Shown: piece by piece, positions 8,619-60,175 of the stretch | Layout: the number at the start of each line of letters is the position of its first letter | Numbering within the stretch: position 1 is the first letter of the stretch | Virus record (IMG/VR): IMGVR_UViG_2724678985_000012 | Direction: 5' to 3' (one strand) | DNA: 64,000 nt | DNA from: a virus | Lineage: Duplodnaviria; Heunggongvirae; Uroviricota; Caudoviricetes | Made by a program: the position numbers and the translations under genes | Notes under the pieces: generated by a model | What the model saw: the letters and a program-made list of their open reading frames with translations, nothing else | What the model was told of the DNA's origin: nothing | The model's database searches: none

Positions 8619-8637
8619 AGTTAAATTTCTAACATAG
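8619..8637 (+). promoter_or_regulatory. C1-operator-like motif site 1
   Basis: AAATTTCTAACATAG; member of 13-site family; followed by dyad AGTGTATTTATATACACT. Confidence 0.5.
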
Positions 8638-8720
8638 TGTATTTATATACACTGTTGATCCTGGTGGATGGGATCGAGTAGGATCGCGGTCACTGCTCCG
8701 GTAGCGACTGCCAAAAAAGC

Positions 8721-8746
8721 AAAAGCCGCTGAGAAGCGGCTTTTTG
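8721..8746 (+). terminator. rho-independent terminator
   Basis: agccgc-tgagaa-gcggc stem-loop followed by TTTTT. Confidence 0.6.
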
Positions 8747-8807
8747 GGTGTATAAATCCACTGCCATAGATTTATACGGTAGATAGATTTTTTCACGGAA
8801 CTATCTG

Positions 8808-9770
8808 GTGAGTATTTTAAATTCAGTTTCAGTAACTTTCAACACTTCTGAGTATAAAAACAACACTGAATACCACAAAAAAATCAAAGGTCATCAGTTG
8901 AGTTTTTTTGCTCGTCATAGCGGTCTTCTTTCCCCTTCACATAGCGCCATTATTGCCGAGTTCGCCAACCTGGCAGGGTCTACCGATGAATACATGATCC
9001 GTCGCTCATATGCTGATATGTCCGAGATTACAGGACGCAGCATTTCTACTGTGCGCCGGGCATTTGCTGAAGCGACGAAGTGCGGAATGCTTGTTAAGCA
9101 ACATCAGGTAGCGAATAACAATGCCCAGGTGTGTAACGTATATCGGTTTACGACACAATTTCTCCACTTCATTCATGTAGCAATGGAGATAGGGGGTAAG
9201 CAGGGCATCAAATTTGCCAACGCCACAAAGCTGGTTAAGCAGTTGATTTCAAAGGTTCGTTATTTTTTTGAAACTGGGAACCCCCTGTTCAAATTGAACA
9301 AGTCCCCCCATGTTCAAAATGAACAGCCAATAGAAAATAAGAGTCACTCTATAGCCAAAAGAAGAGAAAGATCATGCGCGGTTCAGCCAAAGGCTTCACC
9401 AGCAGATAGTACTCAAGCGGATAATGGGGGACTGGATAAAAAAACAGTAATCAGGGAAGAACATACCAACCACTGCCTGGCGGCGGCAAAAGCGAGAGCT
9501 GCAAAGCGTCGTTCAGACGAGGGGCACGCAAAACGGCAGGCTCTGTATCGTACCGCTGAAAAGCTGGCAAAAAAATTTGCATGGATACGTAGTGCCGCTA
9601 CCGCAGTGAATAAGCCTAAACAATCCAGTGCCCTGGATTTCTCAATGGATTATTCTGGCTCCCAGGGGTGTGTAACCATTGGTGAAGCCTTTGACCTGAT
9701 GAAACAGCGTGGCTATCGGTCTGAATTTGACCGGGAGGATTGGTCAATCCCTGCGGGATTTAGGGGATGA
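8808..9770 (+). CDS. hypothetical protein with winged-helix-like segment
   Basis: 320 aa; GTG start uncertain; segment ITGRSISTVRRAFAEA HTH-like; basic C-terminal half. Confidence 0.3.
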   Translation: MSILNSVSVTFNTSEYKNNTEYHKKIKGHQLSFFARHSGLLSPSHSAIIAEFANLAGSTDEYMIRRSYADMSEITGRSISTVRRAFAEATKCGMLVKQHQVANNNAQVCNVYRFTTQFLHFIHVAMEIGGKQGIKFANATKLVKQLISKVRYFFETGNPLFKLNKSPHVQNEQPIENKSHSIAKRRERSCAVQPKASPADSTQADNGGLDKKTVIREEHTNHCLAAAKARAAKRRSDEGHAKRQALYRTAEKLAKKFAWIRSAATAVNKPKQSSALDFSMDYSGSQGCVTIGEAFDLMKQRGYRSEFDREDWSIPAGFRG

Positions 9771-9821
9771 CCTGTGTGTCTACAAAGCATCCCAATGATC
9801 GGAAAATGCTCGCTCGATGAT

Positions 9822-9838
9822 TTGTGTTAGAAAATTAA
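9822..9838 (-). promoter_or_regulatory. C1-operator-like motif site 2 (with inverted partial partner at 9845-9856)
   Basis: TGTGTTAGAAAATTAATTT then GTTTCTAAAT. Confidence 0.45.
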
Positions 9839-10019
9839 TTTGCTGTTTCTAAATCGGAATGTATGATCTGCATCATCGACTGAAGTCATCCATTGCTGAA
9901 ATTTTTAGTTGATCTTCCATGTTTTCAGGCTTATATTCATGCCGTCGTAGCAAATTCTGCGACCAGGTTTGACAGCCTGAATGTTAGTGCGGACAACCGC
10001 AGATTTCCGATATTGCGGT

Positions 10020-10183
10020 ATTTTTGTGTCCGTAAACCGCGTTACGCCCGAATTATGGTGGGGCGTGATGGGGAGGCTTCGGCCTGCTGGTTTCACTAAC
10101 GCCAGTCTGTCAACCCTGTCACGTCCTGCCACCTGTTTGACAGCGGGTAGCAGGTTGTTAAACCTGTTAGTGAGGCCGTAACT
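10020..10183 (+). ncRNA. c4-like antisense RNA / icd leader region of immI module 1 (boundaries approximate)
   Basis: structured leader directly upstream of icd-like ORF; internal complementary segments GGTTTCACTAACGCC / CCTGTTAGTGAGGCC. Confidence 0.3.
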
Positions 10184-10408
10184 ATGGTTAATGCCAATCC
10201 TTGCTCACGTCCTGAATTCATCTGGCGTTTCCACTCCCTGCAAAAACACTGCGATCACTTCGCAATTGCCGCAACCGAAAAAGAAGCCCGTTCTCTGATC
10301 CCTGATCAGCATGGTGTTCTTACTGGTCGTTTCTCTACTTCCCCACAACCAAACACTAATCCCTGGTATCGCAATATTACCAATCCCGGCATTGCGGAGG
10401 CACACTGA
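10184..10408 (+). CDS. icd: Icd-like small protein (immI module 1)
   Basis: 74 aa ORF whose stop overlaps ant start; c4-icd-ant arrangement; paralog at 49482. Confidence 0.5.
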   Translation: MVNANPCSRPEFIWRFHSLQKHCDHFAIAATEKEARSLIPDQHGVLTGRFSTSPQPNTNPWYRNITNPGIAEAH

Positions 10409-11115
10409 TGGATATCTGCATTCTTGAAAAGCCATCAATGACCAGCATTGAGATCGCGGAGCTGGTGGGAAAACGTCATGACAATGTGAAGCGTACCATT
10501 GAAACATTAGCCGAATCCGGCGTTATTGTTCGTCCTCAAATTGAGGATGAACCAAAAATAGATGTAATGGGGCGTTCTCGATTAATTCAGGTGTTCCGAT
10601 TTAGCGACGAGCAAGGCAAACGAGACAGTATCATTGTCGTTGCGCAGCTCTCTCCGGAATTCACCGCCCGGCTGGTGGACCGCTGGCGCGAACTGGAAGA
10701 ACAAGTACGCCAGCCGTTGACCGAAATAGAGATGATCGCCGCAATGGCTGCAAATGCAGTTCAGCAGCAAAAGCGGCTTCATGCTGTTGAGTCAAAGGTT
10801 AGCCAGGTCGCTGAAACCGTCGAGCAAATCAAGAAGGGCAATATGCCAGATGGTTACATTGGCTACCGCCAGCTGGCGGCGAAATGCGGCCTGACTGAAG
10901 CCAAATGTCGCAACCTTGTCAACGCTTACCGGATTCCCACCGATACACATGAGTTTTTAACTCCAGAGGGGGTATTGTCGCGTCGTTCCATCGTGGCCTT
11001 ATCTCCCTTCATGAATGCTTTTAACCGGATGATGTCGGAGGCTGAACACCGAGGAAAACGCTGGTATCACCCCAAAATGGGGCAATTCCAGGTGATCGGT
11101 TGGGGAGGTGAGTGA
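10408..11115 (+). CDS. ant: antirepressor Ant (Rha-type N-domain), copy 1
   Basis: 235 aa; conserved N- and C-terminal blocks shared with paralog at 49697. Confidence 0.7.
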   Translation: MDICILEKPSMTSIEIAELVGKRHDNVKRTIETLAESGVIVRPQIEDEPKIDVMGRSRLIQVFRFSDEQGKRDSIIVVAQLSPEFTARLVDRWRELEEQVRQPLTEIEMIAAMAANAVQQQKRLHAVESKVSQVAETVEQIKKGNMPDGYIGYRQLAAKCGLTEAKCRNLVNAYRIPTDTHEFLTPEGVLSRRSIVALSPFMNAFNRMMSEAEHRGKRWYHPKMGQFQVIGWGGE

Positions 11116-11312
11116 TGGACATCATGCAGGCGGTAAAAAAAATCAGGGAAGGACAGGCTGAAGTGTGCCGCCGTAAAGCATGGAGTGTTGGTGTATGGGC
11201 CTGGCCTGATAATTACTCTACTACCGGATGGTTTTGTATTAATGGACTCCAGATCCGGGAAGTTGATTTATCGACGGCTGATATAGTCGGTAATGATTGG
11301 ATCGTGACTTGA
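11112..11312 (+). CDS. small protein with DUF2829-like signature, homologous to C-terminus of Ant copy 2
   Basis: 66 aa; VCRRKAW...NDWIVT aligns with ant2 C-terminal ATVCRRSSW...TDWIVS; ATGA overlap with ant. Confidence 0.45.
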   Translation: MMDIMQAVKKIREGQAEVCRRKAWSVGVWAWPDNYSTTGWFCINGLQIREVDLSTADIVGNDWIVT

Positions 11313-11320
11313 AGCGTGAT

Positions 11321-11346
11321 GCCCCGGCCTGGCCGGGGCTTTTTTC
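11321..11346 (+). terminator. rho-independent terminator after immI module 1
   Basis: gccccggcc-t-ggccggggc hairpin followed by TTTTTT. Confidence 0.7.
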
Positions 11347-11830
11347 ATGCCTCATTAGTTGAGGTTGCTGCGTCTCCGACTGGTAACAGAGCGGTATTGT
11401 GTGGTTCGCCAGCAGGCCAGCGATAGCCAGACACTCTTGATGTTGGGAATGCGCGAATATTAACCGCATCCCCCTGGTTCCCACCCAAGACAAGCAGATC
11501 GCCATTGGCGCGGCGTCCGACAACGAAGCCTACGTGCCCACCGCCTACGCGGGTAAATACAACGATACATCCGTATGCCGGTGTATCTAATTTCTCGCCC
11601 CAATCCAGATAGGATTTTGCCGACTCAAATCTTGTTGAGCGGATGCCTACACGTTCCAGCATTGCACCGACAAATGCTGCGCACCACGGCGTTTCATCGT
11701 CTTTAATTCCGCCGCGCTTGATGTCGCGCCAGAACTGAACGATTTCAGGGTTGTGTTTAGCGCCTTTTATTTCAGTCAGGCCAATGTGCTTACGGGCTTC
11801 AATTAGCCAGCGAGGTTCAATGTTTGCCAT
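11345..11830 (-). CDS. TIGR02594-family (NlpC/P60-like) putative cell-wall hydrolase
   Basis: 161 aa; PWCAAF Cys and GGHVGFVVG His motifs characteristic of this phage-associated family. Confidence 0.5.
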   Translation of the reverse strand: MANIEPRWLIEARKHIGLTEIKGAKHNPEIVQFWRDIKRGGIKDDETPWCAAFVGAMLERVGIRSTRFESAKSYLDWGEKLDTPAYGCIVVFTRVGGGHVGFVVGRRANGDLLVLGGNQGDAVNIRAFPTSRVSGYRWPAGEPHNTALLPVGDAATSTNEA

Positions 11831-11981
11831 ATTTTTCTCCCGGTAATGGGTTAATAAGTAGGCAAACTATGGGGAGTATGTGATTTTGACGGTAGTATCG
11901 TCCCCCTGAAAATAACATTCTCCATACCCTCTCAACCGTACCGCATAGCGGAATTTTTTACGGTTTAGAGGGGGAAATCCT

Positions 11982-14900
11982 TTGGACAAACTACTTCATT
12001 CAATCAGTGAAGCCTCCAGCTTAGGCGAACTGATTGAAATTGTTAGTCGGTTGCATAAATTACGTGCTGTTGCGACCTTTGGCGTCAGGAAAGCCGATGG
12101 CGTCAGTATTCAGAAAACACGCCGGGCAGCAAACAATGCCGCAGTAAATCTTCTTAATTCCCTTCCGCCCGGCTTCGATGGGGCGAAATTAACTGACGAA
12201 CAACGTCAGATTCTTGCCGGGTATACCGGTGAAGGCGGCCTGACAGATGGTGAGGGCAGCCAATACGAATACTACACGCCACAGTTTATGGCTGAAGGTA
12301 TATGGGATCTGTTTGCTGACTACGGTATTGATGGCGGGCACGTACTGGAACCATCAGCGGGCACAGGTATTTTCCAGGAGACAAAACGGCAGGGCATGAT
12401 AATGACCAGCGCCGAACTGTCTCCGATTTCCGGTCGAATAAACCAGCTTTTGCACCCGGAAGACGATGTGAATATCGGGGCGTTTGAGGCGCTGGCGGCG
12501 AAAGACGCAATGTATGATCACGCTGTAGGTAACGTACCGTTTGGTGAAGGGCGTTCCGGTGTCGCCGGGCTTGATCCGGCATATGCAAACGAGAAGAACG
12601 TTGGCAATTACTTTGTGCTGCGCACGATCGACAAGGTTAAGCCTGGTGGGCTTATCGTATTGGTGGTGCCGAATGGCATGACCGATGGTGCGAAATATAA
12701 AAAATTGCGCGATAAAGTCAGCCGTAAAGCGGAATTTTTGGGCGCACATCGTATGCCTTCTGGTACGTTCAGCGAATCCGGTACAGATACCGTGGTGGAC
12801 GTATGGGTATTGCGTAAACACCCGGAAACCTTCCTGGAGATGATCCCCGACACGGATGATTCAACACTCAAATCGGCAAACGTCCTTTGGGATACCTTCC
12901 TCAAAGGAAAATGGTTTACAACCGAAGGGAAGCGATTTGTTTACGGCGACATGGAACGTACCAGCTTCCGCAATACCCTGGTGGTGAAAAAAGACGGTCG
13001 TGTATCCAATGAGTCGATGAAAACCGCGCTATCTCGTCGCTTTGATAGTCGCATCAATTGGGATTTGCTCGGCGTAACTACTCAGGCATGGCAGGGCGCG
13101 AAAGTGGGCGATAAACGCCTTGTAGGCGGTATCTGGCATGAGTTTGATGGTCTGAAATGGGTTAAGGACACGACAACCAAATCCTCCGCGCTTGATGTAA
13201 GTCGATATGGTGTTTCGACGTTTGGCGATCTGCAGATCGCGTTCCAGTCAACAAACGGGATTCTGGCTTTGTCATGGGACCAGATATCGGCGATCGCGTC
13301 CGACTATCCATCGGTTGTCAGTGATGAAGTGGCAGCAATGATTCGCTTTGCTGGCAAGCAGCGAGAAAAAGACAGGGAGCGCGTTATGCGCGGTGCGCTG
13401 ATAGGTCAGTTGATCAACAAGGCACTTGATTTGCGTAACCTGGGTGTGAACGTTGATGACAAACTGGCAGATGCATCCCGCCTGGCGGCAGCAGAAGTTG
13501 CGAAGTATGGACCACCGCACGCCATTAAGCTGAATGGGCTTGCTGAAGCTGGCGCTAAAAACTGGATGACGTTCACTGGCAATGTGAAACAGGATGGTTC
13601 CACTTCTGACCTTCTGGCAGGGCGACTTGATGTAACGGATGGTGCTGCCGGTATTGACTTTACACGTCCTGAACAAGTGATAGCACATCTTTTCAGTGAT
13701 GTAGCCCTTAATCCTATAACGCTGGGAGACTTTCGTGAGGCGTTTGCTGGTGAACTGCCAGAGGACGACGACGCGGCCCTTGAATACCTGGCGAAATTTG
13801 ATGATATCGCTATTGATGGGTATGGCTGCCTGCTGCCGATGGACCGCGCCACCAGCGGCGATATTGCAACCAAAACAGCATTGCTGATGGGCTGGCGTGA
13901 TGCGTCAACAGGTGAGCAGAAAGCGAACTTTGAGCGTCAGTTGGCGAAAATCGAAGAGAAACGTATTTTCACGCCACTAAATAAAGTCACCGTTAATCTG
14001 AATGCCCGCTGGCTGGATCGCCGCTTGATAAAAGAGTTCCTGGCAGAGCAGGGCTATGACGAGTTTAAGTACACTGAACCTGATCTGAAGGTCGTCGATG
14101 GCATTCTGGTATCTCCGGACGATTACGAAGGTAAGGACGGGGTATTTACCGGCTATCAGCTACGAACCGTAAACGGCAAAAACGGGAATGAGTTCAAGAA
14201 GGCCAACAATAAAGACGGCTTCCTGAACCAGTTAGAAAACTACCTGAACGGTGTTAAACCGCGTGGGCAGAACGCTAACGAGTACCTGGATAAAATTGCT
14301 CAACTGGAAGTTAGTTTTAACGACTGGTTACGCACTCACCCGCAGGCTGATCAGATAGCCCGCGAGTATAACGACGCATTCAATGGTTTCATTCCGTTCA
14401 CGCATTCTGACGCACCGCTTGGCCTGGAAGGGCTTAGTGGAAAGCGCATTCCTCTTACTTATCAGAATGAAGAAGTTCGGCGCTTGTCAGAAGATGGGCG
14501 CGGCATCATGGGATTTGGTACCGGGCTGGGTAAAACCACGACCGCGCTTGCGCTTGAGGCGTATAACTTCGAAACAGGTCGCACTAAACGCACGTGTATT
14601 GTTGTTCCGAAGGCGGTTTATCAGAACTGGTATCACGAGGCACAGAGTTTCTACAGTGCTGATGCCTTCGCCAATATGATGTTTATCGGTTTGGATGAAG
14701 TTCGTGATGACAGCGGAAATATTCTGACCGCGCCGGTGCTTGATGAAAATGGCGAACCACGCCTCGACAGTAACGGGCAGCCTCTTACCAGAAATGTTGT
14801 GAAAGAGTCCGCCAGCGCCGTTATCGTTCAGCGCATGAACATGATCCCGTCGTCAAATTGGCGAACGGTCATCATGACAAAAGAACAATTCGCGTCTATC

Positions 14901-17900
14901 CCGCTACGAGAAAAAACCATCGAGGAGAACTCACAGCAAGCTGTCTTTAATGCTGTGGAAATGGGGCGTCTTGACCTGGCGTCCGGTAAACACCGTGATG
15001 CGCAGAAGAAGAACAAGATTAAGGATCAGGCCGCGAATACCGGTACAACGAAGAAGCAGAATATCCCGTACTTTGAGGATATGAACTTCGATAGCGTGAT
15101 TGCCGACGAGGGGCATAACTACCGCAACTCCTTTAATGCCGGGCGTGAAGCGGGACAACTGGCATATTTGCCTAACCCGGCAGTATCCAAGATGGCCCGC
15201 GACATGGCTGTAAAAGCTGCGTACATGATGAAACGCAACAACGGGCGTGGTGTAGTCATGCTGACGGCAACTCCGCTGGTGAACAGTCCGATTGATGCCT
15301 TCAACATGCTGTCTACTGTCATTCCGCAGGAAGAGTGGATGCGCATGGGCATCATTACGCCTGATGATTTCGTTCGTGTGTTTGGCAAAACAGCCACAGT
15401 TCAGGTCCAGAAAATTTCCGGGGAAGTGGAAGAGAAGCAGGGGCTGGTGGGCTTCCAGAACCTTGACGGCCTGCGTGGTATTTTCCATCGTTGGACCACT
15501 CTGAAGACTGCTGCAGATGTCGGAGCAACGGTTAAAATTCCCGACATCATTGAGAACACCTTGCAGATCCCGATGACAGGGGAGCAGGAGACTGCTTATG
15601 AAGAGCTTCGTAAGCGTGCTCAGGAGTTAAGTCGCAATGATGAGCTGACAGTCGATGAAAACGGGCATATCACTAACGACAAACCGGATGATTTCATCTT
15701 CTCCATCATCCGTGACATGGACAAGGTTGCTATAGACCCGGATCTGTATGCCAGTGCGATTACATTCCAGTTCCCCGTTGAGCTTGCAGACCAGGTAAAA
15801 GCTATTGCTGATGCCTTGCCAAAAGTAGCTGGCGGTAAAGTGGCAGATGATGTTGATGAGGCCGAGGAAGACGGCGCTGGCGGGCTGGTCAGTACGCGTA
15901 CCAGCAAGGTAGTGAAGACCGCTTTTAGTGAACATCCGACGCATGTTGAAATACGTGCCAGCATTGAACTGGAAGCTGAAATACTTAAGGCCATTGCGGC
16001 TGCCGGTATTGATATGCAGCAGGTATCGCACCCCATCCCGCCGAAGTATGCCGCGCTGATCGAAAATCTTCGTGAAGGTCTGAAGAACGGTAAGCAGATC
16101 GTCTTTATTGATGAAAAAGCCCAGCACCAGAAGCTGCGCCGTATTATCGCCAGTGCACTGCAAATGCCGGAGCAGGAGATTGGCATTATCAATGCGACGA
16201 CAGTTAGCCAGGCTGGCGGCATCAAGCTGAAGAAGGTGAATAAGCCGACCGAACCTACTCCAAACAAAAACGGTGAATACAAAGAAGGGGCATGGGAAAC
16301 CTACTACAGCAAACTTGCCCAATATGAGGATTATCTCTCAGCCAAAAATGATGCTGGCCTTGAGGGCATGGAAGGTATTGCCGCCGACTATAACGAAGGT
16401 CGCACGCGCATCATAATCTGTAACAAGAAGGCTGAAGTAGGTATTAACCTGCACATCGGGACAACCGATATCCACCACCTGACACTACCCTGGACACCAG
16501 CCAGTATCGACCAACGAAATGGGCGCGGTGCGCGCGTAGGTTCACCGCAAGAGAAGGTCAATGTTCACTACTATTGTGGCAAAGGCACATTCGACGACTT
16601 CCGTCTGGATACGCTGAAACGTAAGAAAGACTGGATCAAGATGGTGATGACCTCCGACATGTCAGAGATCGCCAATGGTGATGCGGATGATGCTGATGAA
16701 CGCGCCATTATGCTGGCGGCAAACCCGGAAGAACGCCGCGCAATCATGGCTCGCCAGGCGCAAGAGCGTGAAGAACGTCTGAAACTGAAAGCACAGCGCG
16801 AGGCCAACAATGCTCTCGATATCTACCTGAAAGCGGCAAACGCCGCCGGAAAAGATATCGGCATGATGGAGACAGAACTGAAAAGCGCGATGGAACAGAT
16901 AGAGTATTACCAGCGCAATCTTGACGACCTGATAAAAGCGGGTACGAACAGGAATGGGCAAAAATACGCGCTTGAGCAGTTGAGTAGCTACAGAAAACGT
17001 GCGCGGGTGCTGAAGTTTGCGATCACCAGGGCAAAAGACGCGGATACCATAATGAAACGCTCTCGTGGTGATGTGGAGCGCGCTATTAAGTCTGGTGTGC
17101 TGGATATCAGTATCGATGTTATTCAGAACCCACAGGAATATATGCGCACTGACAAGAATATCCTGTTGCATAAAGGTAGTTATTACCGTGCAGTCATTGA
17201 TGATCGCGAAACAACAGCGATTGTCCGGGTGGAAAAAATTGACGGTGAAAAAGCACAATACATCTGCCGTATCGCCTGGCTGGATAGAGCAAGTCGTTAC
17301 GCTCGATCACCGGGGTCAATCGTTACATTGCCGTTTGACTCTGTGATTGAAGCGGTAACTTTTGAAGAGGGGGTAGCTGAATCGCGCGCAACGGCTGCGC
17401 GTGGTGTTCAGTGCCACCAGCTATCAACGTCACTTACTCGCGATCAGTTCTATGATGCTATTCGTAACGGAGTAATGAAGGTCACTACAGGCCAGCCTGG
17501 TAGAGCATGGGGCGGTGAACCAGGTATTAAATACTGGGCCTATCGCACCGATGATGGTCAGATCGCGCTGTCATCGACCTATGATGGCATGATAGGACAG
17601 AAAATCGGGCGTACATCGGATATTGCACCAGAGCAGTGGATTTACCCTGATATCAACAATGAGGCGCTGAAGCGTGAAGTGGCAAAAATACAAGCCAGTG
17701 ATAATCCGCTGAATATCGTGGACGGAGAGGGATTCCTCCAGGCATTGTATGGGTATGATTACATCCAGGGAATGCAGGCATGGGGCGCACAAGCAACGAT
17801 GGATGATGTTGCCCAGGAGTTCGAAAACTGGATGGCTGGGCGTGGTCTGTCAGGTCGCTCGCTTAATAAAGTCACTTCTGAAGATATTCTTAGCTTGTTC

Positions 17901-18818
17901 CGCAAACCGTCCGGAGAAGGTCTGGAATCATTCTGGAGGACCGTGCTGGCATACCGTTTATTCCAGGGCAGGATGAAAGCCTTTAGCAATATCGATGATA
18001 TTGAACGGATGTTTAATCAGGTCAAGATAGCGAAAATTAAGACGAAGATCGAAAAAACACGTTCTGCGCTGGTGGCCTGGCGCGATGCATTGTTTGAGCA
18101 ATATAAATCACTCAGTGATGCAGATGGATGGGCGGCATTGGAACAGCTGGCGAATAATGGGGTAGATGGAGCGAAACTCGCCATTGTTCAGGCTGATAAC
18201 CCCCTGGAATCACCGGCAGCACAGTGGATTAAGGTGGGGGCTGTCATCAATGCATTTGATGAAAAATACATTAGTAAGGACGATTTTGCTGATGCTGTTT
18301 CTGTTAATCGCCTGGTAGAAATGGCTACCCGCCGCGCCCGTGAGTTGAAAGACGGCGACTATGTGAATGAGTTGCCGGATACGCTCAAATCGGCAACGTG
18401 GCAGGACTATGTATCGCTGAAAAACGGCGGGGCCACTGAATCAGAGATCGCGGAAAGGCTTGAGCAGGCTGAAAGCAAAAGAGAAGAGCAGGCGGCAGTG
18501 GCTGAAGCCAGAGCTGATGAAGCGGCGAATGATGACTATATCATTGTGGTTAATGATAAGCCGATTCGCGCTAAGGCGCGTGTTCGCGGGCGCTGGTGGA
18601 GCGTCAGCGAGGACGTTGGCGCGGTTTATCTCATTGCCGACCAACCAGGTTCCTCGACAATACGGAACGCCAAAGACGCGATTAAGAAGATTGGCGGGCG
18701 TTTCTGGAATTTTGAAGCAAACCCGGTTGCTGATGTGAACTTTGACCGTCCTGCATGGATGGTATCTACGCGTTACTCGGTAGATGAACTGCGTAAAATA
18801 ATCGCCGATGCGGCCTAA
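11982..18818 (+). CDS. darB: DarB-like giant N6-adenine methyltransferase + DExH helicase fusion (antirestriction)
   Basis: 2278 aa; TTG start with AGAGGGGGA SD; MTase motifs EPSAGTGIF and NVPFGE; helicase motifs GFGTGLGKTT and ADEGHNYRN. Confidence 0.8.
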   Translation: MDKLLHSISEASSLGELIEIVSRLHKLRAVATFGVRKADGVSIQKTRRAANNAAVNLLNSLPPGFDGAKLTDEQRQILAGYTGEGGLTDGEGSQYEYYTPQFMAEGIWDLFADYGIDGGHVLEPSAGTGIFQETKRQGMIMTSAELSPISGRINQLLHPEDDVNIGAFEALAAKDAMYDHAVGNVPFGEGRSGVAGLDPAYANEKNVGNYFVLRTIDKVKPGGLIVLVVPNGMTDGAKYKKLRDKVSRKAEFLGAHRMPSGTFSESGTDTVVDVWVLRKHPETFLEMIPDTDDSTLKSANVLWDTFLKGKWFTTEGKRFVYGDMERTSFRNTLVVKKDGRVSNESMKTALSRRFDSRINWDLLGVTTQAWQGAKVGDKRLVGGIWHEFDGLKWVKDTTTKSSALDVSRYGVSTFGDLQIAFQSTNGILALSWDQISAIASDYPSVVSDEVAAMIRFAGKQREKDRERVMRGALIGQLINKALDLRNLGVNVDDKLADASRLAAAEVAKYGPPHAIKLNGLAEAGAKNWMTFTGNVKQDGSTSDLLAGRLDVTDGAAGIDFTRPEQVIAHLFSDVALNPITLGDFREAFAGELPEDDDAALEYLAKFDDIAIDGYGCLLPMDRATSGDIATKTALLMGWRDASTGEQKANFERQLAKIEEKRIFTPLNKVTVNLNARWLDRRLIKEFLAEQGYDEFKYTEPDLKVVDGILVSPDDYEGKDGVFTGYQLRTVNGKNGNEFKKANNKDGFLNQLENYLNGVKPRGQNANEYLDKIAQLEVSFNDWLRTHPQADQIAREYNDAFNGFIPFTHSDAPLGLEGLSGKRIPLTYQNEEVRRLSEDGRGIMGFGTGLGKTTTALALEAYNFETGRTKRTCIVVPKAVYQNWYHEAQSFYSADAFANMMFIGLDEVRDDSGNILTAPVLDENGEPRLDSNGQPLTRNVVKESASAVIVQRMNMIPSSNWRTVIMTKEQFASIPLREKTIEENSQQAVFNAVEMGRLDLASGKHRDAQKKNKIKDQAANTGTTKKQNIPYFEDMNFDSVIADEGHNYRNSFNAGREAGQLAYLPNPAVSKMARDMAVKAAYMMKRNNGRGVVMLTATPLVNSPIDAFNMLSTVIPQEEWMRMGIITPDDFVRVFGKTATVQVQKISGEVEEKQGLVGFQNLDGLRGIFHRWTTLKTAADVGATVKIPDIIENTLQIPMTGEQETAYEELRKRAQELSRNDELTVDENGHITNDKPDDFIFSIIRDMDKVAIDPDLYASAITFQFPVELADQVKAIADALPKVAGGKVADDVDEAEEDGAGGLVSTRTSKVVKTAFSEHPTHVEIRASIELEAEILKAIAAAGIDMQQVSHPIPPKYAALIENLREGLKNGKQIVFIDEKAQHQKLRRIIASALQMPEQEIGIINATTVSQAGGIKLKKVNKPTEPTPNKNGEYKEGAWETYYSKLAQYEDYLSAKNDAGLEGMEGIAADYNEGRTRIIICNKKAEVGINLHIGTTDIHHLTLPWTPASIDQRNGRGARVGSPQEKVNVHYYCGKGTFDDFRLDTLKRKKDWIKMVMTSDMSEIANGDADDADERAIMLAANPEERRAIMARQAQEREERLKLKAQREANNALDIYLKAANAAGKDIGMMETELKSAMEQIEYYQRNLDDLIKAGTNRNGQKYALEQLSSYRKRARVLKFAITRAKDADTIMKRSRGDVERAIKSGVLDISIDVIQNPQEYMRTDKNILLHKGSYYRAVIDDRETTAIVRVEKIDGEKAQYICRIAWLDRASRYARSPGSIVTLPFDSVIEAVTFEEGVAESRATAARGVQCHQLSTSLTRDQFYDAIRNGVMKVTTGQPGRAWGGEPGIKYWAYRTDDGQIALSSTYDGMIGQKIGRTSDIAPEQWIYPDINNEALKREVAKIQASDNPLNIVDGEGFLQALYGYDYIQGMQAWGAQATMDDVAQEFENWMAGRGLSGRSLNKVTSEDILSLFRKPSGEGLESFWRTVLAYRLFQGRMKAFSNIDDIERMFNQVKIAKIKTKIEKTRSALVAWRDALFEQYKSLSDADGWAALEQLANNGVDGAKLAIVQADNPLESPAAQWIKVGAVINAFDEKYISKDDFADAVSVNRLVEMATRRARELKDGDYVNELPDTLKSATWQDYVSLKNGGATESEIAERLEQAESKREEQAAVAEARADEAANDDYIIVVNDKPIRAKARVRGRWWSVSEDVGAVYLIADQPGSSTIRNAKDAIKKIGGRFWNFEANPVADVNFDRPAWMVSTRYSVDELRKIIADAA

Positions 18819-18854
18819 CAGATAAGGAGCGGCCCCAACCGGGGCCGAATTTGA

Positions 18855-19289
18855 ATGACGACATTAATTGACACTGTAAAACCGACGGAATCCTACCTTG
18901 AGGACATTTTGCCGCAGGCGCTCAATGGCAGGAGTGAAGAAGAATACCTGACAGTTTATCTTGATGGCATGGTAGAAAGACTGAAGAAAAATCCACAGCT
19001 TTATCACCTTTATGGGCCGTGGTGGCCTGCGCTTAAAACGTTATTGCTGGAGCGCGGCGACATATCATTTGGACAAGTTGTAGATAGTGATGTGGCAGAG
19101 ATCTACAAAATGAGTCGCCCGGCGCTTACGGTTTTGGCTGGGCATCTGTATTCGAGCGATCGCCTGGGAAATGACGCGGTATACAATCCCGTTCATGCTC
19201 TGGAAGTCGCACCTTATGCTGATGATACAGAGCCATACGTGTACATAAGTTACGACGAGTCTATAGAGAAATATCGAATCATGGGGTAG
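18855..19289 (+). CDS. hypothetical protein
   Basis: 144 aa ORF immediately downstream of darB-like. Confidence 0.4.
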   Translation: MTTLIDTVKPTESYLEDILPQALNGRSEEEYLTVYLDGMVERLKKNPQLYHLYGPWWPALKTLLLERGDISFGQVVDSDVAEIYKMSRPALTVLAGHLYSSDRLGNDAVYNPVHALEVAPYADDTEPYVYISYDESIEKYRIMG

Positions 19290-19291
19290 CC

Positions 19292-19552
19292 ATGCGAAAG
19301 AATCGTAGGTTTACGGTCGAAGACCTAAAGGAATATTCCATATCGAAGGGGTATATCCTTGAGTTCCACCGATACAAGAAGGTTTTTACGCTGCGAAAAG
19401 CAGAAAACCCTGCGAACTGGAGCTGGATATACTTTCCTCACACCGATGATAAGTTGGTAGAACTTGTTGATGATTTAACCTATGAAGGTTGGTTGATCGC
19501 AATCGACAAGACAATCAAAGAATTATCCGAACAGGATAAAATAACCCTTTAA
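19292..19552 (+). CDS. hypothetical protein
   Basis: 86 aa ORF, tightly coupled to upstream gene. Confidence 0.4.
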   Translation: MRKNRRFTVEDLKEYSISKGYILEFHRYKKVFTLRKAENPANWSWIYFPHTDDKLVELVDDLTYEGWLIAIDKTIKELSEQDKITL

Positions 19553-19723
19553 AAATAACAGGTTGGGTAAATGCCATGCGATTTACCCTCCTTGTTGATT
19601 AAGGTCACTCTTTACTCTAAAAGCAAATCCGACCTGTTGCATATAGACCATCCTTGAGTAGTATCTCTCTTGTTTTACAAATCTAACGTTGTTGTTATTA
19701 TTTCGCATATTTACTATCAATGG

Positions 19724-19740
19724 GTGTGTTAGAAAATAGC
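19724..19740 (-). promoter_or_regulatory. C1-operator-like motif site 3
   Basis: GTGTTAGAAAATAGC in AT-rich intergenic region. Confidence 0.4.
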
Positions 19741-19885
19741 GCGAAAGAGAAGGCGTCGCAGTGAATATTCTGAAACATCCCCACATGCCGCAGCTCTTAG
19801 AGAACTGGAGAAAAACCCAGATCTAATCAAAAGGAACCATGAGCATTACGAGCAGGTTCGCGTCCTGGACTGGTTGTATCGCAAT

Positions 19886-20182
19886 ATGCGTTATGTGTAT
19901 GAGCATACTCACGCCACTCCAAACGGTGGCCTGCGAGGCATAAGGACGGCAATAAAAATGGTGGCAGAGGGCCAAAAGAAGGGATATCCCGATCTTTCTA
20001 TAGACCTTGCTTGTGGGGGATACCACGGAATGCGCATTGAGATGAAACATGGGAGAAATCGCCTGACTCCCGAACAACTCGTCTGGATGACCCGCCTCAC
20101 TGAAGCCGGTTACTACTGCTTTGAGGCGCGCAGTGCCGCTGAAGCCATAAAAGCTATCACGGAGTATGTTTGTCTTGATTAA
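19886..20182 (+). CDS. VRR-NUC domain nuclease (PD-(D/E)xK)
   Basis: GYPDLSID...GMRIEMKHG...LTPEQ pattern typical of VRR-NUC; ATG at 19886. Confidence 0.55.
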   Translation: MRYVYEHTHATPNGGLRGIRTAIKMVAEGQKKGYPDLSIDLACGGYHGMRIEMKHGRNRLTPEQLVWMTRLTEAGYYCFEARSAAEAIKAITEYVCLD

Positions 20183-20196
20183 ACGGAGAAATCGTT

Positions 20197-20397
20197 TTGC
20201 GTTTACTTAACGTGGCAGAACTTATCCCTGCAGGAACTAATGCTATCGCTCGTCGTCGCTCATGGCAGCAGGCTCTATGTATTGAGATCTCGAAACGTAT
20301 CAATGGAAGTTTTGAAGCTCGCAATATTGTTACTGGCGATAAGGTTCACATAACCCCGGAAAGTGCAAGCGCTGATGATTGGGAGTTTGTACATTGA
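20197..20397 (+). CDS. hypothetical protein
   Basis: 66 aa ORF. Confidence 0.3.
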   Translation: MRLLNVAELIPAGTNAIARRRSWQQALCIEISKRINGSFEARNIVTGDKVHITPESASADDWEFVH

Positions 20398-20693
20398 GCA
20401 AAAAATATTATGTGAGTCTGGCGTTCGCTGACGATGCGGGGAGGACGCGGAGTATCACGTTGAGCACACCGGTTAAGGCTGTGACAGCGCCGTTAATCCG
20501 TGAAGCTCTCAGAGAGCTGGAATTGGGTGAAAACTCGGCACTGTTGTCGGTTAGTTGGTTAGGGAAAATGTCAGAGAAACAATACGTGGATGGAGTTACC
20601 CCAATAACAGTAATGAGGCTACTTTCATTGCTGCAATGGGCCATCGTACCTGTATTTATCGCGTATCTTATTTATCAGGCTGCAACACAGTAA
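20379..20693 (+). CDS. hypothetical protein with C-terminal transmembrane helix
   Basis: 104 aa; C-terminal hydrophobic LLSLLQWAIVPVFIAYLIY; start uncertain. Confidence 0.35.
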   Translation: MGVCTLSKKYYVSLAFADDAGRTRSITLSTPVKAVTAPLIREALRELELGENSALLSVSWLGKMSEKQYVDGVTPITVMRLLSLLQWAIVPVFIAYLIYQAATQ

Positions 20694-20700
20694 TTGCATA

Positions 20701-20728
20701 AAAACCCGCCAATTAGCGGGTTTTTTGT
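20701..20728 (+). terminator. rho-independent terminator
   Basis: aaaacccgcc-aatta-gcgggtttttt. Confidence 0.8.
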
Positions 20729-20765
20729 TTATTGCATCTTCCGGTACCGCCATCAAACTAATAAA

Positions 20766-20782
20766 ATATGTTAGAAAACTAA
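20766..20782 (-). promoter_or_regulatory. C1-operator-like motif site 4
   Basis: ATATGTTAGAAAACTAATTTAAC upstream of 20807 gene. Confidence 0.5.
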
Positions 20783-20806
20783 TTTAACAAAGTGACGGGA
20801 ACAGCA

Positions 20807-22015: not shown

Positions 22016-22032
22016 TGTGTTAGAAATCTAAA
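22016..22032 (-). promoter_or_regulatory. C1-operator-like motif site 5
   Basis: GTGTTAGAAATCTAAAATC. Confidence 0.45.
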
Positions 22033-23249: not shown

Positions 23250-23326
23250 GATGGTGTAGCTCAGTAGGATAGAGCAGCAGCCTTCTAAGCTGTCGGTCGG
23301 TGGTTCGAATCCACCCACCATCGCCA
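23250..23326 (+). tRNA. tRNA-Arg (anticodon UCU)
   Basis: 77 nt cloverleaf: acceptor GATGGTG/CACCATC, anticodon loop CTTCTAA, T-loop TTCGAAT, encoded CCA. Confidence 0.85.
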
Positions 23327-23331
23327 ATTTA

Positions 23332-23418
23332 GGGGAGTTAGTCCGTAGGGGTAGCGGGGTAGACTGTAAATCTACTGTCATTGCGACTCGGGTGGTTCGA
23401 CTCCATCACTCCCCACCA
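23332..23418 (+). tRNA. tRNA-Tyr (anticodon GUA), long variable arm
   Basis: 87 nt; anticodon stem-loop GTAGA-CTGTAAA-TCTAC as in E. coli tRNA-Tyr; acceptor GGGGAGT/ACTCCCC; CCA. Confidence 0.75.
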
Positions 23419-23422
23419 AATT

Positions 23423-23498
23423 GCCGGTTTAGCTCAGTTGGTAGAGCGCCTGCCTTGTAAGCAGGATGTCAGCGGTTCGAGTCCGTTAACCGGCACCA
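23423..23498 (+). tRNA. tRNA-Thr (anticodon UGU)
   Basis: 76 nt; acceptor GCCGGTT/AACCGGC; anticodon loop CTTGTAA; CCA. Confidence 0.85.
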
Positions 23499-23704
23499 AC
23501 ACAACAGGTAAGGGCATTCTCCCTTATGGGGCTTGGCTTAAATGCATCGAGTGCTCTTACCGTTGTGATGAAGTGCAGCTCTTTGAAGCAACCAGAAGAT
23601 AAGCATCTGGCTTCACAACATAAACCGCAGGAACGACCAATAAACGGTAGTCCGTATGGAGAACACCCCGTTGAGGAAGAGGCCTGGCCGGAACCGTAAC
23701 CGGC

Positions 23705-23803: not shown

Positions 23804-23900
23804 AATGCACAGGCTGATGTGCCGCAACTACAGTAGTGCGCGCTTTGCGGGGCTTGCTACAACCCTGTGTCGGAGTTCAGCACCGACCATCACAATCACT

Positions 23901-26946: not shown

Positions 26947-26961
26947 CGTTAGGTATTTAAT

Positions 26962-30316: not shown

Positions 30317-30317
30317 A

Positions 30318-30336: not shown

Positions 30337-30343
30337 GTTGTGA

Positions 30344-57728: not shown

Positions 57729-58492
57729 CTTCAAATAAAACCCTCCTGGCACGAACAGGTGAATGGCAAACCTCACGCACAGGAAAATTCCAGACCACGG
57801 GCTTTGAAAACGTGGATAACGCGTTTGCTACGCTAATCAGCAATATCTTTTCTGATATCTTACTGGTGGCCCCCGCGCCGGAAGAAAAACGCTTTGCGTC
57901 ATTCCTGAATCGTCCACCAGCAGAGCGTGTCTATGTGGCCCGTTTCGACAATGCGATCGAGTTTCTTAAAGCAGTTCGTCGCGCAAATGCCGGGCAAGGG
58001 AGAAAACCTGAAAACCAGAACATTAACCGGGATGCTCTCCCCCTGGTCAATATCTCACGCACTATGGATATCAATTATATCAACGATGATCAGCAGATTG
58101 ACCGCAAAAAAGTAGCCAGTTTTTGCGAACCGGATACCGGAATGCCTTTAGCAGAACTGGAATACACCCAGGCCATTCTGACGTATGACGTTACGTTAAT
58201 GGCAACTGATAAAGCGACCATGAGTCTGATGTGTAATTCGCTGGGCGCACGGCTTCGCCTGATGACAGGTACACAATTTGAAGCAACCACTCACCTTGTT
58301 CGTGTCCCGGTCCCGCTGATTTGCTCGATACAGGATGCCAAAGAAGTCGGCTTTACGGATGTTTCAGCACCAATTGGAGAAGAGCGTATTTATGCCACAC
58401 AAGCGCCGATAAGTGTGATTGCAGACGTGATCACAGCATGGGAGTTGGACGCAAAACGTATTATTACCGAAACCTCGATATCTATGGGGTGA
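57725..58492 (+). CDS. hypothetical protein
   Basis: 255 aa; ATGA overlap. Confidence 0.4.
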   Translation: MTSNKTLLARTGEWQTSRTGKFQTTGFENVDNAFATLISNIFSDILLVAPAPEEKRFASFLNRPPAERVYVARFDNAIEFLKAVRRANAGQGRKPENQNINRDALPLVNISRTMDINYINDDQQIDRKKVASFCEPDTGMPLAELEYTQAILTYDVTLMATDKATMSLMCNSLGARLRLMTGTQFEATTHLVRVPVPLICSIQDAKEVGFTDVSAPIGEERIYATQAPISVIADVITAWELDAKRIITETSISMG

Positions 58493-58495
58493 TAA

Positions 58496-59476
58496 GTGGC
58501 CCAGGAGTTACAACAATATTTTCTACAGTCAGTGCTCATTAACGATAACAAAGTGCCACGAGACTGGATTTTTACCGCAGTATATGTAGAAAAAACCAGC
58601 CTCAAAGCCCCTTTGCTAAAACTGGAAATTCATGACGCTACCGGCACCGTAATTGATGACTGGAAAGCCAAATACGGTGCATCGCTGGTGGCTGAAATGG
58701 GCGATCCAAACGGTAATGCAGGCACTTTTAAAACAGATTTCTTTGTTACGTCTGCAATGCTGGCTGGTGATGTTGTTACCGTTATTGCTGTCAGTGAAGA
58801 CGTGCGCAGGTTTAAGATCCCCTCCCCGCGCACAAATTTACATACCAACAAAACACCAGACGCTATATTCAAGGCATATTCCGGCAAACTTAAAATTACC
58901 AGCAGCGTGCTAAAACGCGCAGTTACATATCATCTGAATGCTGGTGACAAACCGTCAAAAATGCTTTCGGAGATAGCGCGAGACAAAGGTGCATTGTGTT
59001 GGGTATGTCGGGGGGAATTTAACTTTTACACCCTGGCTGATCTGATGAAGCAAACGCCATCATTTACCTACGAGGGGAATAACCCTAAAGCAGAATACAC
59101 TTTGTCAAAAATGCGCCTACTCCAACAGGAACATGCGACAACAGCAAAGAATCAATATCGTTTTGTTGGGTATTCCATGACCGATGGCTACGTCGAATAT
59201 GGCGATAGCTCACTCCCAGTGCGTTATATATCCGACTCTGATATGGAAACTCTTCGCAATATGCAGCTGTCTCTCGTCCCCAAAATGGATATAGAAGTCG
59301 CAGGCAATCCTGATATAAAACCGGGGATGGTAATAGAGATTATCGTATACCGCTATGACCAGGAAAACCGCATTGATGAATCAATGCCCCGTAAGCTGAT
59401 AGTAAAAAATGTTGCGCACTTTGAGGACCGCGTAGGCTACACAACACGAATGATATTGGGAGTGCCTAACAAATGA
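58496..59476 (+). CDS. putative baseplate hub-like protein (by position upstream of spike)
   Basis: 326 aa; GTG start; overlaps spike gene start. Confidence 0.3.
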   Translation: MAQELQQYFLQSVLINDNKVPRDWIFTAVYVEKTSLKAPLLKLEIHDATGTVIDDWKAKYGASLVAEMGDPNGNAGTFKTDFFVTSAMLAGDVVTVIAVSEDVRRFKIPSPRTNLHTNKTPDAIFKAYSGKLKITSSVLKRAVTYHLNAGDKPSKMLSEIARDKGALCWVCRGEFNFYTLADLMKQTPSFTYEGNNPKAEYTLSKMRLLQQEHATTAKNQYRFVGYSMTDGYVEYGDSSLPVRYISDSDMETLRNMQLSLVPKMDIEVAGNPDIKPGMVIEIIVYRYDQENRIDESMPRKLIVKNVAHFEDRVGYTTRMILGVPNK

Positions 59477-60126
59477 AGCGTAGAGCGCAAATTGTTGGAA
59501 CTGTGCACCCGGCAGGGCTTATGCGTGCTCAAGTCCGTGTTTTACCTGACTGGAATGGCGTTCCTGATGACGATCTACCCTGGGCGGAATACCTGTTACC
59601 CATCGGAAACGCTTTTGTACCCACAGTCAAAGGTGACCTGGTCTGGGTAGAGTTTCCTTATTTAGATGTTAACGGTCGAATAGACACCAGACGCCCAATG
59701 ATAGTTGGTGCCGCTCAGGATGCACCGGGAGGAATTCCAAACGTTGCACCAGAAGCATCTGGCAAAGGCAACGGCTGGACGCCGCCGGAAGTAGATGGAG
59801 CACCTCCCCGCCCCCAAATCTCAGCAACGAAAGACTTCGTTATTCACCGCAACAATATTCTTGAAGTACGAACTGCTGGTGGCGGCTATGAAATTGCCAA
59901 TACGGCAGCAGGCTCAAGGATTGGCATGAATGAGTCCGGGCAGATATATATCATTGGTCCGGCTGATGTAATCGTGAATGCAGGAGGGAGTGTTAACGTC
60001 AAATCAGCCAACAACATCAATGTTAAAGGGGAAAATATTGCTGTCACCGCTAACGGAGACATAGCTTTCAAGGCAGGAGGAACCTTTCAGGCCACTGCTA
60101 GCAACTTCGATTTCAAGAAAGGATAG
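59473..60126 (+). CDS. baseplate spike protein (gpV / Mu gp45-like)
   Basis: 217 aa; N-terminal OB-fold pattern RAQVRVLPDW...GDLVWVEF; C-terminal beta-helix-like repeats. Confidence 0.5.
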   Translation: MKRRAQIVGTVHPAGLMRAQVRVLPDWNGVPDDDLPWAEYLLPIGNAFVPTVKGDLVWVEFPYLDVNGRIDTRRPMIVGAAQDAPGGIPNVAPEASGKGNGWTPPEVDGAPPRPQISATKDFVIHRNNILEVRTAGGGYEIANTAAGSRIGMNESGQIYIIGPADVIVNAGGSVNVKSANNINVKGENIAVTANGDIAFKAGGTFQATASNFDFKKG

Positions 60127-60157
60127 AAAATGCACCCATTTGTGTTAGATAATTAAT

Positions 60158-60175
60158 ATGTATTTTCTAACACAA
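60158..60175 (+). promoter_or_regulatory. C1-operator-like motif site 13, embedded in 14-bp inverted repeat
   Basis: CCATTTGTGTTAGA...TCTAACACAAATGG around TATTTTCTAACAC, upstream of rdgC-like gene. Confidence 0.5.

Follow-up and report, generated by a model that had tools for sequence, protein, structure and literature searches.

A dispersed 19-bp motif in a D6-like plasmid prophage is a probable operator of its C1-family repressor

The DNA analyzed here (the window, 64,000 nucleotides) is the reverse complement of a D6-like, P1-type plasmid prophage. It carries an asymmetric motif at 13 loci, comprising 18 half-sites spread across 52 kb, and homology, synteny, and co-occurrence indicate that this motif is very probably the operator of a D6-type C1 prophage repressor, to which C1 would bind to repress the adjoining genes. 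In phage P1, C1 recognizes 22 asymmetric operators, each 17 bp long and dispersed over the genome, and RepL and Lpa are under its control (PMC8546580). The window is 95 to 98% identical to D6 across most of its length, and mosaic replacements at 24217 to 25307, 36534 to 42417, 45008 to 46647, and 54836 to 55378 separate the two. D6 has 12 exact copies of the motif core in the same places as in the window, with three sites (8626, 19727, and 48014) slightly altered between them. Operators and promoters are absent from the annotation of both D6 GenBank records (MF356679 and AY753669). Literature text searches for the motif or a D6 C1 operator returned nothing relevant; an earlier description in the primary D6 papers, reportedly Sauer & McDermott 2004 and Gilcrease & Casjens 2018, is possible.

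The exact 9-mer core TTTCTAACA is found at 8626 (+), 9825 (-), 19727 (-), 20769 (-), 22018 (-), 22174 (-), 31401 (+), 32811 (+), 43457 (-), 48672 (+), and 60164 (+). One-mismatch copies lie at 26968 (+) and 48014 (-), both reading TTTCTAATA, and at 60143 (-), reading TATCTAACA. All 13 copies listed in the initial annotation are present, accompanied by five weaker partner half-sites, and the consensus given there is close to the 19-bp consensus that we derived, A-N-N-T-T-A-R-T-T-T-T-C-T-A-A-C-A-Y-A. The 10-mer TTTTCTAACA was observed 8 times against an expectation of 0.27, and none of 100 shuffled sequences reached 8. Using an unbiased 8-mer count of the window, in which 12.4% of the sequence was intergenic, we found TTTCTAAC to be the top intergenic word, with 11 intergenic copies and 1 coding copy. 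An independent weight matrix, built only from 34 sites that three other plasmids carry, gave 14 window matches of at least 12 bits, all of them intergenic (binomial p ~2e-13), compared with a mean of 1.3 in shuffles. When an uncurated ORF set was used (9.2% noncoding), 11 of the 14 cores were outside any ORF (p = 1.1e-9). The earlier statement that every copy is intergenic depends on gene calls for the copy at 19727, because that copy falls within the N-terminus of the TTG-start 'pmgM' CDS of the D6 record and, in the window, that 'pmgM' frame is broken by the loss of 1 nt, relative to D6, from the A-run of the motif.

Eight loci are single sites, and five are inverted pairs. The three pairs reported previously (9825/9847, 43458/43478, and 60143/60164) are all real, and we detected two more, at 48014/48035 and, in degenerate form, at 26947/26968. 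The core-to-core distance is exactly 21 bp, or two helical turns, in all five pairs, and this spacing predominates across 7 genomes. Relative to the downstream gene, the motif has mixed orientation (7 versus 6), which, together with the constant 21-bp spacing of the palindromic pairs, fits a protein-binding site and not a directional promoter element.

We compared the positions of these sites with those of P1, whose record annotates C1 operators before kilA-repL, c4, pmgR, lpa, c1/coi, ref, and uhr-hrdC-dmt and at the ref stop (Omat); the P1 genome paper is said to be Lobocka 2004. Window sites lie at the gene junctions of P1 Oc4, OrepL, OpmgR, Olpa, Oc1, Oref, Omat, and Odmt. A predicted monovalent operator at 8618 to 8636 (+; exact core at 8626; 24.2 bits) occupies the gap between pro, which ends at 8607, and repL (8808 to 9770); its P1 counterpart is OrepL/Op53, and it is kept upstream of repL in the Shigella dysenteriae plasmid. 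Upstream of c4-a1b1, the C4 RNA, icd, and ant, a predicted bivalent operator (9823 to 9856; cores at 9825 - and 9846 +), the counterpart of Oc4/Op51, overlaps a sigma-70-like promoter (TTGCTG/TATGAT, 9840 to 9867). At this c4 locus, P1 homology starts just downstream, at a P51b-like promoter, and upstream of it a D6-type pair replaces the P1 operator. The predicted monovalent operator upstream of pmgM (VRR-NUC), at 19725 to 19743 (-), lies just downstream of a promoter-like TTTACA-16-TATTAT (19674 to 19701); it has a 1-nt indel relative to D6, and its core is kept in D6, LT906557, CP104667, and the S. dysenteriae plasmid.

Three predicted monovalent operators surround pmgS and the region beyond it. 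The first (20767 to 20785, -; 30.9 bits), in the gap between a terminator (20700 to 20725) and pmgS, is the counterpart of OpmgR/Op86, and in a four-genome alignment its block is fully conserved while its flanks diverge. The second (22016 to 22034, -; 29.3 bits) immediately follows the pmgS stop codon and is conserved in four genomes. The third (22172 to 22190, -; 16.2 bits) lies in a stretch without annotation that precedes the tRNA/tci region; its possible P1 counterpart is OpmgT or Oban, and it is kept in D6, LT906557, CP104667, and contig L012. The predicted operator upstream of lpa (26945 to 26978), the counterpart of Olpa/Op94, combines a strong half at 26968 (+; 24.7 bits) with a degenerate half at 26947 (-; 8.6 bits), and the S. 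dysenteriae plasmid has a perfect 21-bp pair there. A predicted operator at 31393 to 31411 (+; 26.7 bits), the counterpart of Oc1/Op99, precedes the c1 start codon by 12 to 30 bp, which implies autoregulation, and is kept in all relatives, including contigs L012 and L013 and the remnant on pK91. The c1-dre intergenic region also holds a weak second site (31481 to 31499, -; TTTCTAAAA, one mismatch), of which TTAGAAAA is conserved in the four-genome alignment. Over the dre/cre stop codon (32804) and upstream of the orf117-dut operon is a predicted monovalent operator (32803 to 32821, +; 28.5 bits) that is kept in four genomes, L012, and L013.

The remaining predicted operators include a bivalent one with a conserved pair (43455 to 43488; 43457 - and 43478 +; 29.9 and 13.8 bits) at the ppp/DUF968-pdcB-like gene junction in a minus-strand operon. 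Another bivalent operator (48012 to 48045; 48014 - and 48035 +; 21.7 and 11.5 bits), the counterpart of Oref, lies where a minus-strand operon and ref (48092 to 48670) diverge, in the promoter region that separates them; both of its half-sites are in a conserved block with divergent flanks. The ref stop codon carries a monovalent operator (48664 to 48682, +; 27.8 bits), a position equal to that of P1 Omat, which overlaps the ref stop. It is upstream of a second immI-like module (isrK-like RNA, C4 RNA, icd, and ant), with Rfam matches downstream. Finally, a bivalent operator (60141 to 60174; 60143 - and 60164 +; 21.9 and 23.7 bits) precedes hrdC/rdgC (60186 to 61091); it corresponds to Odmt/Op68, and its pair is kept in the S. 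dysenteriae plasmid.

We also examined these sites in relatives. The core, and often the whole 19- to 23-bp block, is invariant amid divergent flanks in plasmids whose C1 proteins are 90, 80, and 70% identical, and contigs with C1 proteins 51 and 44% identical retain the core upstream of c1, upstream of lpa, and downstream of the recombinase gene. Contigs L012 and L013 were retrieved via their C1 gene, and the co-occurrence of motif and C1 there is partly built in. The c1 region was matched by 197 plasmid records. One c1-region remnant is on a resistance plasmid, pK91, a conjugative plasmid that has only c1-dre-dut and yet retains the predicted site directly before c1, which provides a minor control.

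The candidate repressor gene, c1 (30344 to 31381, -), is flanked by pacB and dre and encodes a 345-amino-acid protein that is 100% identical to D6 C1. Pairwise, it is 21% identical to P1 C1 over 240 amino acids (E = 2e-8); both proteins belong to phrog_1678 (E = 3e-170 for the window C1), and PF27008 (Phage_P7_repressor_C1) is assigned to C1 and its homologues. In the NCBIfam NF041318 equivalog test, the window C1 scored 25.4 bits, below the cutoff of 500, and is thus a distant member of the family and not the same protein as P1 C1. A tblastn search of the phage collection with C1 returned D6 itself only, and the predicted C1 structure model showed no recognizable DNA-binding fold. By pairwise comparison only, the ORF at the lxc-equivalent position (19292 to 19552) had no similarity to P1 Lxc, and by a pairwise and visual check only, no coi-like ORF was evident upstream of c1.

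The motif could instead be the operator of another phage regulator, either a Rha/Ant-type or a small uncharacterized protein, with C1 recognizing something else. Counted in favor of this explanation are the further putative DNA-binding proteins that the window encodes, namely those of the Rha-family ant genes (10408 to 11115 and 49697 to 50638), and the fact that no alternative C1 site was identified elsewhere in the window. However, no second operator family emerged from the 8-mer count that placed TTTCTAAC at the top of the intergenic repeats, the sites correspond in position, gene for gene, to the C1 operators of P1, and every relative, down to the pK91 remnant, has a site directly before c1. 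We therefore consider another regulator unlikely.

Less likely still is the possibility that the motif is a sigma-70 promoter module common to these loci, or a binding site for a host nucleoid protein (IHF/Fis-like), that was copied along with the promoters and acts without a dedicated repressor. The core does hold CTAACA (-35-like) and TAACAT (-10-like), hexamers that some predicted promoters use, and its flanks are A/T rich. However, the conserved block, at 19 bp, is far longer than a hexamer, mixed orientation and inverted pairs at exactly 21 bp do not suit such an element, the sites do not match the IHF consensus WATCAANNNNTTR by inspection, and P1, which has the same host, is without any copy. 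Counting against the C1 explanation, besides the C1 model and the Lxc and Coi comparisons above, the sigma-70 promoters predicted near the sites are weak, their distance from the operators is variable, and several sites fall where the preceding gene ends and not on an obvious promoter. Because promoter scans were weak and, in the window, not enriched over shuffles (16 found versus 23 expected), the operator-promoter overlaps described above are suggestions only.

The initial annotation had raised the alternative of an Lpa-dependent late-promoter element in place of an operator; such an element would correspond to the -22 box of P1. Lpa is present in the window (lpa, 27055 to 27447, +; PF25716 BPP1_LPA, E = 5e-57), where it is the presumed C1 target linking operators to late genes, and the sites at 20767 and 22016 flank the morphogenetic gene pmgS. 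However, a separate motif, AAATMACANNNTNNNNANNNT, has the anatomy of a late promoter, with an AAATMACA box followed at a set distance by a -10 and every copy oriented with its gene. This late motif, which emerged when 8-mers were counted and upstream regions aligned, has 7 window matches versus 0.09 expected and precedes lydA, ddrB, prt, a lysozyme-like gene, darB, mat, and gp7, the same genes at which P1 late promoters are located. It is kept in D6 and the S. dysenteriae plasmid, where it also precedes genes 23, R, pmgB, and upfC, and a P1-style scan of the window (AAGTGACTT plus -10) gave only 4 poor matches. In contrast, TTTCTAACA is found in both orientations, is not accompanied by a -10 at a constant distance, and precedes early and regulatory genes, lpa itself among them. 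The late-promoter explanation is refuted by this second motif and is, in our judgment, highly improbable. That the sites are a chance cluster of an A/T-rich word, for which only the A/T-rich flanks speak, is practically excluded by the shuffle, matrix, and ORF-placement statistics, which also dispel the concern that shuffled sequence would give similar counts, and the window, at 41 to 51% GC, is not markedly A/T rich.

If the motif is the C1 operator, then in a lysogen C1 would occupy ANNTTARTTTTCTAACAYA, an asymmetric site of ~19 bp, at all 13 loci, within or beside promoters, and hold early lytic and regulatory units off. These would comprise repL (lytic replication), the two c4-icd-ant antirepressor modules, lpa, ref, the hrdC-methylase unit, the pmgM and pmgS units, the dut and ppp operons, and c1 itself. 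Repression of lpa would silence all late operons indirectly. Once C1 was inactivated, the repressed units would fire, Lpa would be made, and the late promoters with the AAATMACA box and -10 would switch on.

Tentatively, the P1 family may have a second and old operator "dialect," that of D6-type C1, with a 19-bp site, a 9-bp core frozen down to 44% C1 identity, and five inverted pairs two helical turns apart, although we regard this as less probable than not. If it were true, binding would be cooperative and perhaps dimeric via the D6-specific C-terminal helical extension, unlike at P1's overlapping sites, and cross-repression would still be possible between D6-like plasmids whose C1 proteins differ greatly. 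Immunity differences would then have to reside in the two c4-ant modules, where the difference between P1 and P7 immunity resides. D6-like plasmid prophages are common in Escherichia coli, Salmonella, and Shigella, and their public annotation is without regulatory sites. The operator and late-promoter consensus sequences could serve as a working regulatory map that separates genes kept silent in the lysogen from those that fire early or late. They also enable automatic annotation of relatives and offer reagents with which immunity, induction, and cross-repression among co-resident phage-plasmids could be tested.

As an annotation, the predicted D6-type operator set is useful but unsurprising, since a counterpart to the thoroughly studied P1 immunity network was to be expected. 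The P1/P7 immC system and the window each have a C1-family gene adjoining a recombinase gene and pac, an asymmetric 17- to 19-bp site in many copies genome-wide (named P1 operators of this class include Op2a, Op51, Op53, Op68, Op72, Op86, Op94, and Op99), and, as proposed here, a cascade in which C1 represses lpa and Lpa activates late promoters. The late promoters are likewise a dispersed, Lpa-activated motif in P1, with a -22 box AAGTGACTT plus -10 where the window has the AAATMACA box; the TTTCTAACA motif differs from them in sequence, downstream genes, and orientation and lacks a fixed -10. Unlike P1 and P7, the window has two c4-icd-ant modules, each behind a predicted operator, and its C1 is ~60 residues longer than P1 C1, with a helical C-terminal extension of ~75 residues. 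Single and inverted double sites, with conserved cores outside and A/T-rich tails inside, are common to P1 and the window, but P1 double sites overlap in a 28-bp arrangement (Obanab and Oc1ab), whereas the cores of the window are 21 bp apart. The resemblance to the P1 operator noted earlier extends to ~8 of 17 positions, mostly in the A/T-rich tail, and is weak; the two cores (TGTTAGAAA against ATTGCTCTAAT) are unrelated. No match to the P1 consensus operator (ATTGCTCTAATAAATTT) was found in the window with up to 3 mismatches, and P1 has no copy of TTTCTAACA. The absence of P1-consensus matches indicates that specificity differs, as fits an immunity type of its own for D6. Together with the C1-family gene and synteny, it supports the original proposal of a C1-like repressor with non-P1 specificity, which probably binds these sites. 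Thus, as expected, the P1 design of one repressor and ~20 scattered asymmetric operators appears to outlast the replacement of sequence specificity.

The initial annotation had listed 13 intergenic copies of an operator-like motif and attributed them to a C1-like repressor of its own specificity. A scan for the 9-bp core of this motif, TTTCTAACA, with one mismatch allowed, recovered every one of these positions, together with coding matches that lacked the flanking consensus. The counts were far above those of shuffled sequence: TTTTCTAACA occurs in 8 copies against 0.27 expected, a number reached by 0 of 100 dinucleotide shuffles, and the 15-mer gave 12 matches with at most 3 mismatches against 2.9 expected. 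Alignment of 14 strong copies yielded the consensus A-N-N-T-T-A-R-T-T-T-T-C-T-A-A-C-A-Y-A, in which informative positions reach 8 bp past one end of the core and 2 bp past the other; the site is therefore an asymmetric 19-bp element. Independently of the initial list, an 8-mer count in which 12.4% of the window was intergenic returned TTTCTAAC as the commonest intergenic 8-mer (11 intergenic copies, 1 coding), and a weight matrix trained only on 34 sites of three other plasmids gave 14 matches of at least 12 bits in the window, against a mean of 1.3 in Markov shuffles. All 14 matrix matches are intergenic (p ~2e-13), and 11 of 14 cores lie outside any ORF with an uncurated greedy ORF set (p = 1.1e-9), in agreement with the intergenic placement first claimed.

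Some of these sites are paired. Two inverted pairs were found in addition to the three already described, which we confirmed, and in each the cores lie exactly 21 bp apart (9825/9846, 26947/26968 with a degenerate left half, 43457/43478, 48014/48035, and 60143/60164). Across seven related genomes, this divergent 21-bp spacing is by far the most frequent way in which a strong core is combined with an inverted partner, with 24 counts against 9 for the next class. The cores point outward and the A/T-rich tails join centrally, a topology shared with the P1 double operators Obanab and Oc1ab, which, however, overlap within 28 bp.

By megablast, the window was placed on phage D6 (MF356679), a P1-type plasmid prophage of E. 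coli, with 98% identity over 100% of the query for 8000-23000 and 95% identity over 83% of the query for 40000-62000. In the full comparison, it corresponds, reverse-complemented, to D6 coordinates 32165..1 plus 91159..60288, with mosaic replacements at 24217-25307, 36534-42417, 45008-46647, and 54836-55378. We took gene names from the D6 record, in which no operators or promoters are annotated.

The relation to D6 is shared by the candidate master repressor gene, c1 (30344-31381, minus strand), whose 345-residue product is 100% identical to D6 C1. This protein has 21% identity to P1 C1 over 240 residues (E = 2e-8) and falls in the same PHROG; PF27008 (Phage_P7_repressor_C1) is present in its homologues, and it scores far under the NCBIfam equivalog cut-off. 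D6-type C1 has a helical C-terminal extension of ~75 residues that P1 C1 lacks. The corresponding part of c1 (30344-30570) is well conserved across the clade, with pLDDT values of 80 to 94, and the extension might have a role in oligomerisation at the 21-bp paired operators. PDB matches to the AlphaFold2 model (pLDDT 79) were to generic helix bundles only and named no DNA-binding fold. The P1 repressor binds asymmetric 17-bp operators, of which there are 22 at dispersed positions, and has RepL and Lpa under its control (PMC8546580). No P1-type operator was found in the window with up to 3 mismatches allowed, and TTTCTAACA was not found in P1. Simple pairwise and visual comparison revealed no homologue of Lxc or Coi in the window.

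Using the P1 record AF234172 as a reference, with 20 C1 operators and 11 late promoters annotated, we found the window sites at the same gene junctions as the P1 operators. The site after pro and before repL corresponds to OrepL/Op53, the one preceding the c4-icd-ant module to Oc4/Op51, those around pmgM and before pmgS to O26, Oppp, and OpmgR, and the one after pmgS to the OpmgT region. Sites preceding lpa (the late-promoter activator gene), c1, ref, and hrdC are the counterparts of Olpa/Op94, Oc1/Op99, Oref, and Odmt/Op68, respectively, and the site at the ref stop codon is that of Omat.

The surroundings of some of these sites have features of their own. Directly 3' of the repL operator, 8638-8690 holds a palindrome (AGTGTATTTATATACACT) and then three GATC sites and, overlapping GATC with both its -35 (TTGATC) and its -10 (TAGGAT), a weak promoter; the region is also conserved in the S. 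dysenteriae plasmid, and its GATC sites are reminiscent of the annotated Dam sites of the kilA/repL promoter region in P1. At 19725-19743 (D6 11366-11376), the operator A-run is one A shorter than in D6, a deletion that breaks the TTG-start frame and thus the D6-annotated pmgM N terminus; the real pmgM start probably lies further downstream, unless pmgM is damaged in this element. Four tRNA genes identified with Rfam, three clustered and one isolated (23250-23495 and 25449-25521), all lie downstream of the operators at 22016 and 22172; the tRNA and tci genes of P1 are part of the C1-controlled ban operon.

To assess conservation, we fetched D6-like plasmids whose c1 regions have diverged. With C1 proteins 90, 80, 70, and 68% identical to that of the window, all of them carry the exact core at syntenic positions, each in 9 to 15 copies, and when six intergenic regions were aligned, an invariant operator block stood between diverged flanks. 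Two Logan contigs with C1 at 51% and 44% identity have the layout dre-c1-pacB-pacA-lpa, as in the window, and retain the core upstream of both c1 and lpa and downstream of the recombinase gene; because they were retrieved via C1, the co-occurrence of C1 and core is partly built in, but the syntenic placement is not. The contig with the 44% identical C1 has an extra intergenic repeat, AAGTGTGAAGTA(T/A)TA, at 532, 4503, 4886, and other positions, which is absent from the window. In the conjugative multidrug-resistance plasmid pK91 of S. Typhi (NZ_CP029874.1), the D6-like part is only a c1-dre-dut-doc/phd remnant (17766-22900), which retains operators upstream of c1 and downstream of the recombinase. 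Chi, GCTGGTGG, occurs in 43 copies in the window, where 1.7 would be expected; the plus strand has 28 of them and the minus strand 15, including those at 7993, 10461, 22086, and 22150. Near 22150, the copy CCACCAGC is retained across the intergenic alignment 3' of pmgS. Similar Chi enrichment is known in P1.

The initial annotation had also allowed that TTTCTAACA might be a late-promoter element. P1 late promoters consist of AAGTGACTT plus a -10 (AF234172 annotation), and a direct scan of the window for this pattern gave nothing convincing. The intergenic word ranking second in enrichment, AAATCACA, pointed instead to a separate motif, AAATMACANNNTNNNNANNNT (a box plus a -10), with 7 matches in the window against 0.09 expected (635-655, 4413-4433, 5860-5880, 11866-11886 on the minus strand, 11910-11930, 52189-52209, and 56875-56895). 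All seven are directed at late genes (lydA, ddrB, prt, a lysozyme-like gene, darB, mat, and gp7), and the motif has been conserved both in D6 and in the S. dysenteriae plasmid, where it also stands before genes 23, R, pmgB, and upfC. P1 has late promoters at the genes preceded by AAATMACANNNTNNNNANNNT; the box is unlike the P1 box. Lpa is well conserved, and AAATMACANNNTNNNNANNNT probably represents the Lpa-dependent late promoter of the D6 type. The copies of TTTCTAACA, by contrast, point both ways with respect to the gene that follows (7 same, 6 opposite) and have no -10 at a constant offset, and the reading of TTTCTAACA as a late-promoter element is excluded.

Taken together, these results define a 19-bp asymmetric motif that is strongly enriched, lies in noncoding DNA where P1 has its operators, is conserved together with D6-type C1, and differs from the late promoters, and we consider it very likely to be the C1 operator set. 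The initial observation was essentially right, as was the repressor proposed with it, in that the sites are syntenic with P1 operators, C1 has diverged, and P1-type operators are absent. In a lysogen, C1 would bind the motif and block nearby promoters, including its own; loss of C1 activity would release repL, the antirepressor modules, ref, hrdC, and lpa, and the Lpa made would then activate the AAATMACA-box promoters. The operator-promoter overlaps and their exact positions are predictions, and promoter-like matches in the region were weak and not enriched. The searchable literature, which did not include the primary D6 papers or the P1 genome paper, contained no mention of D6 operators; the network is unannotated in public records and was possibly noted already in the primary D6 papers. 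Its existence will not surprise a specialist; its uses lie in annotation and in experimental work on phage-plasmid immunity.

Rfam placed C4 antisense RNAs at 10051-10136 and 49340-49427, each downstream of one operator (9823-9856 and 48664-48682, respectively). They belong to two immI-like antirepressor modules, both situated behind a C1-type operator: the first, within 9931-11115, has a c4-a1b1 target (9931-9983), C4 RNA, icd, and ant, and the second, within 49217-50638, has an isrK-like RNA (49217-49295), C4 RNA, icd, and ant. P1, in contrast, has one such module. The c4 locus is particularly informative. Here, comparison of window 9800-9990 with P1 48100-48290 put the mosaic boundary exactly at a P51b-like promoter (window 9909-9937), where P1 homology starts and continues downstream at ~93% identity. 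Just upstream of this promoter, P1 has AATGCTCTAATAAATTT, whereas the window has a TTTCTAACA pair, which overlaps a predicted sigma-70-like promoter; a D6-type pair replaces P1 Oc4, and operator and C4 module have evidently recombined as separate units. The window sites are very probably the D6-type counterpart of the network of C1 operators in P1.
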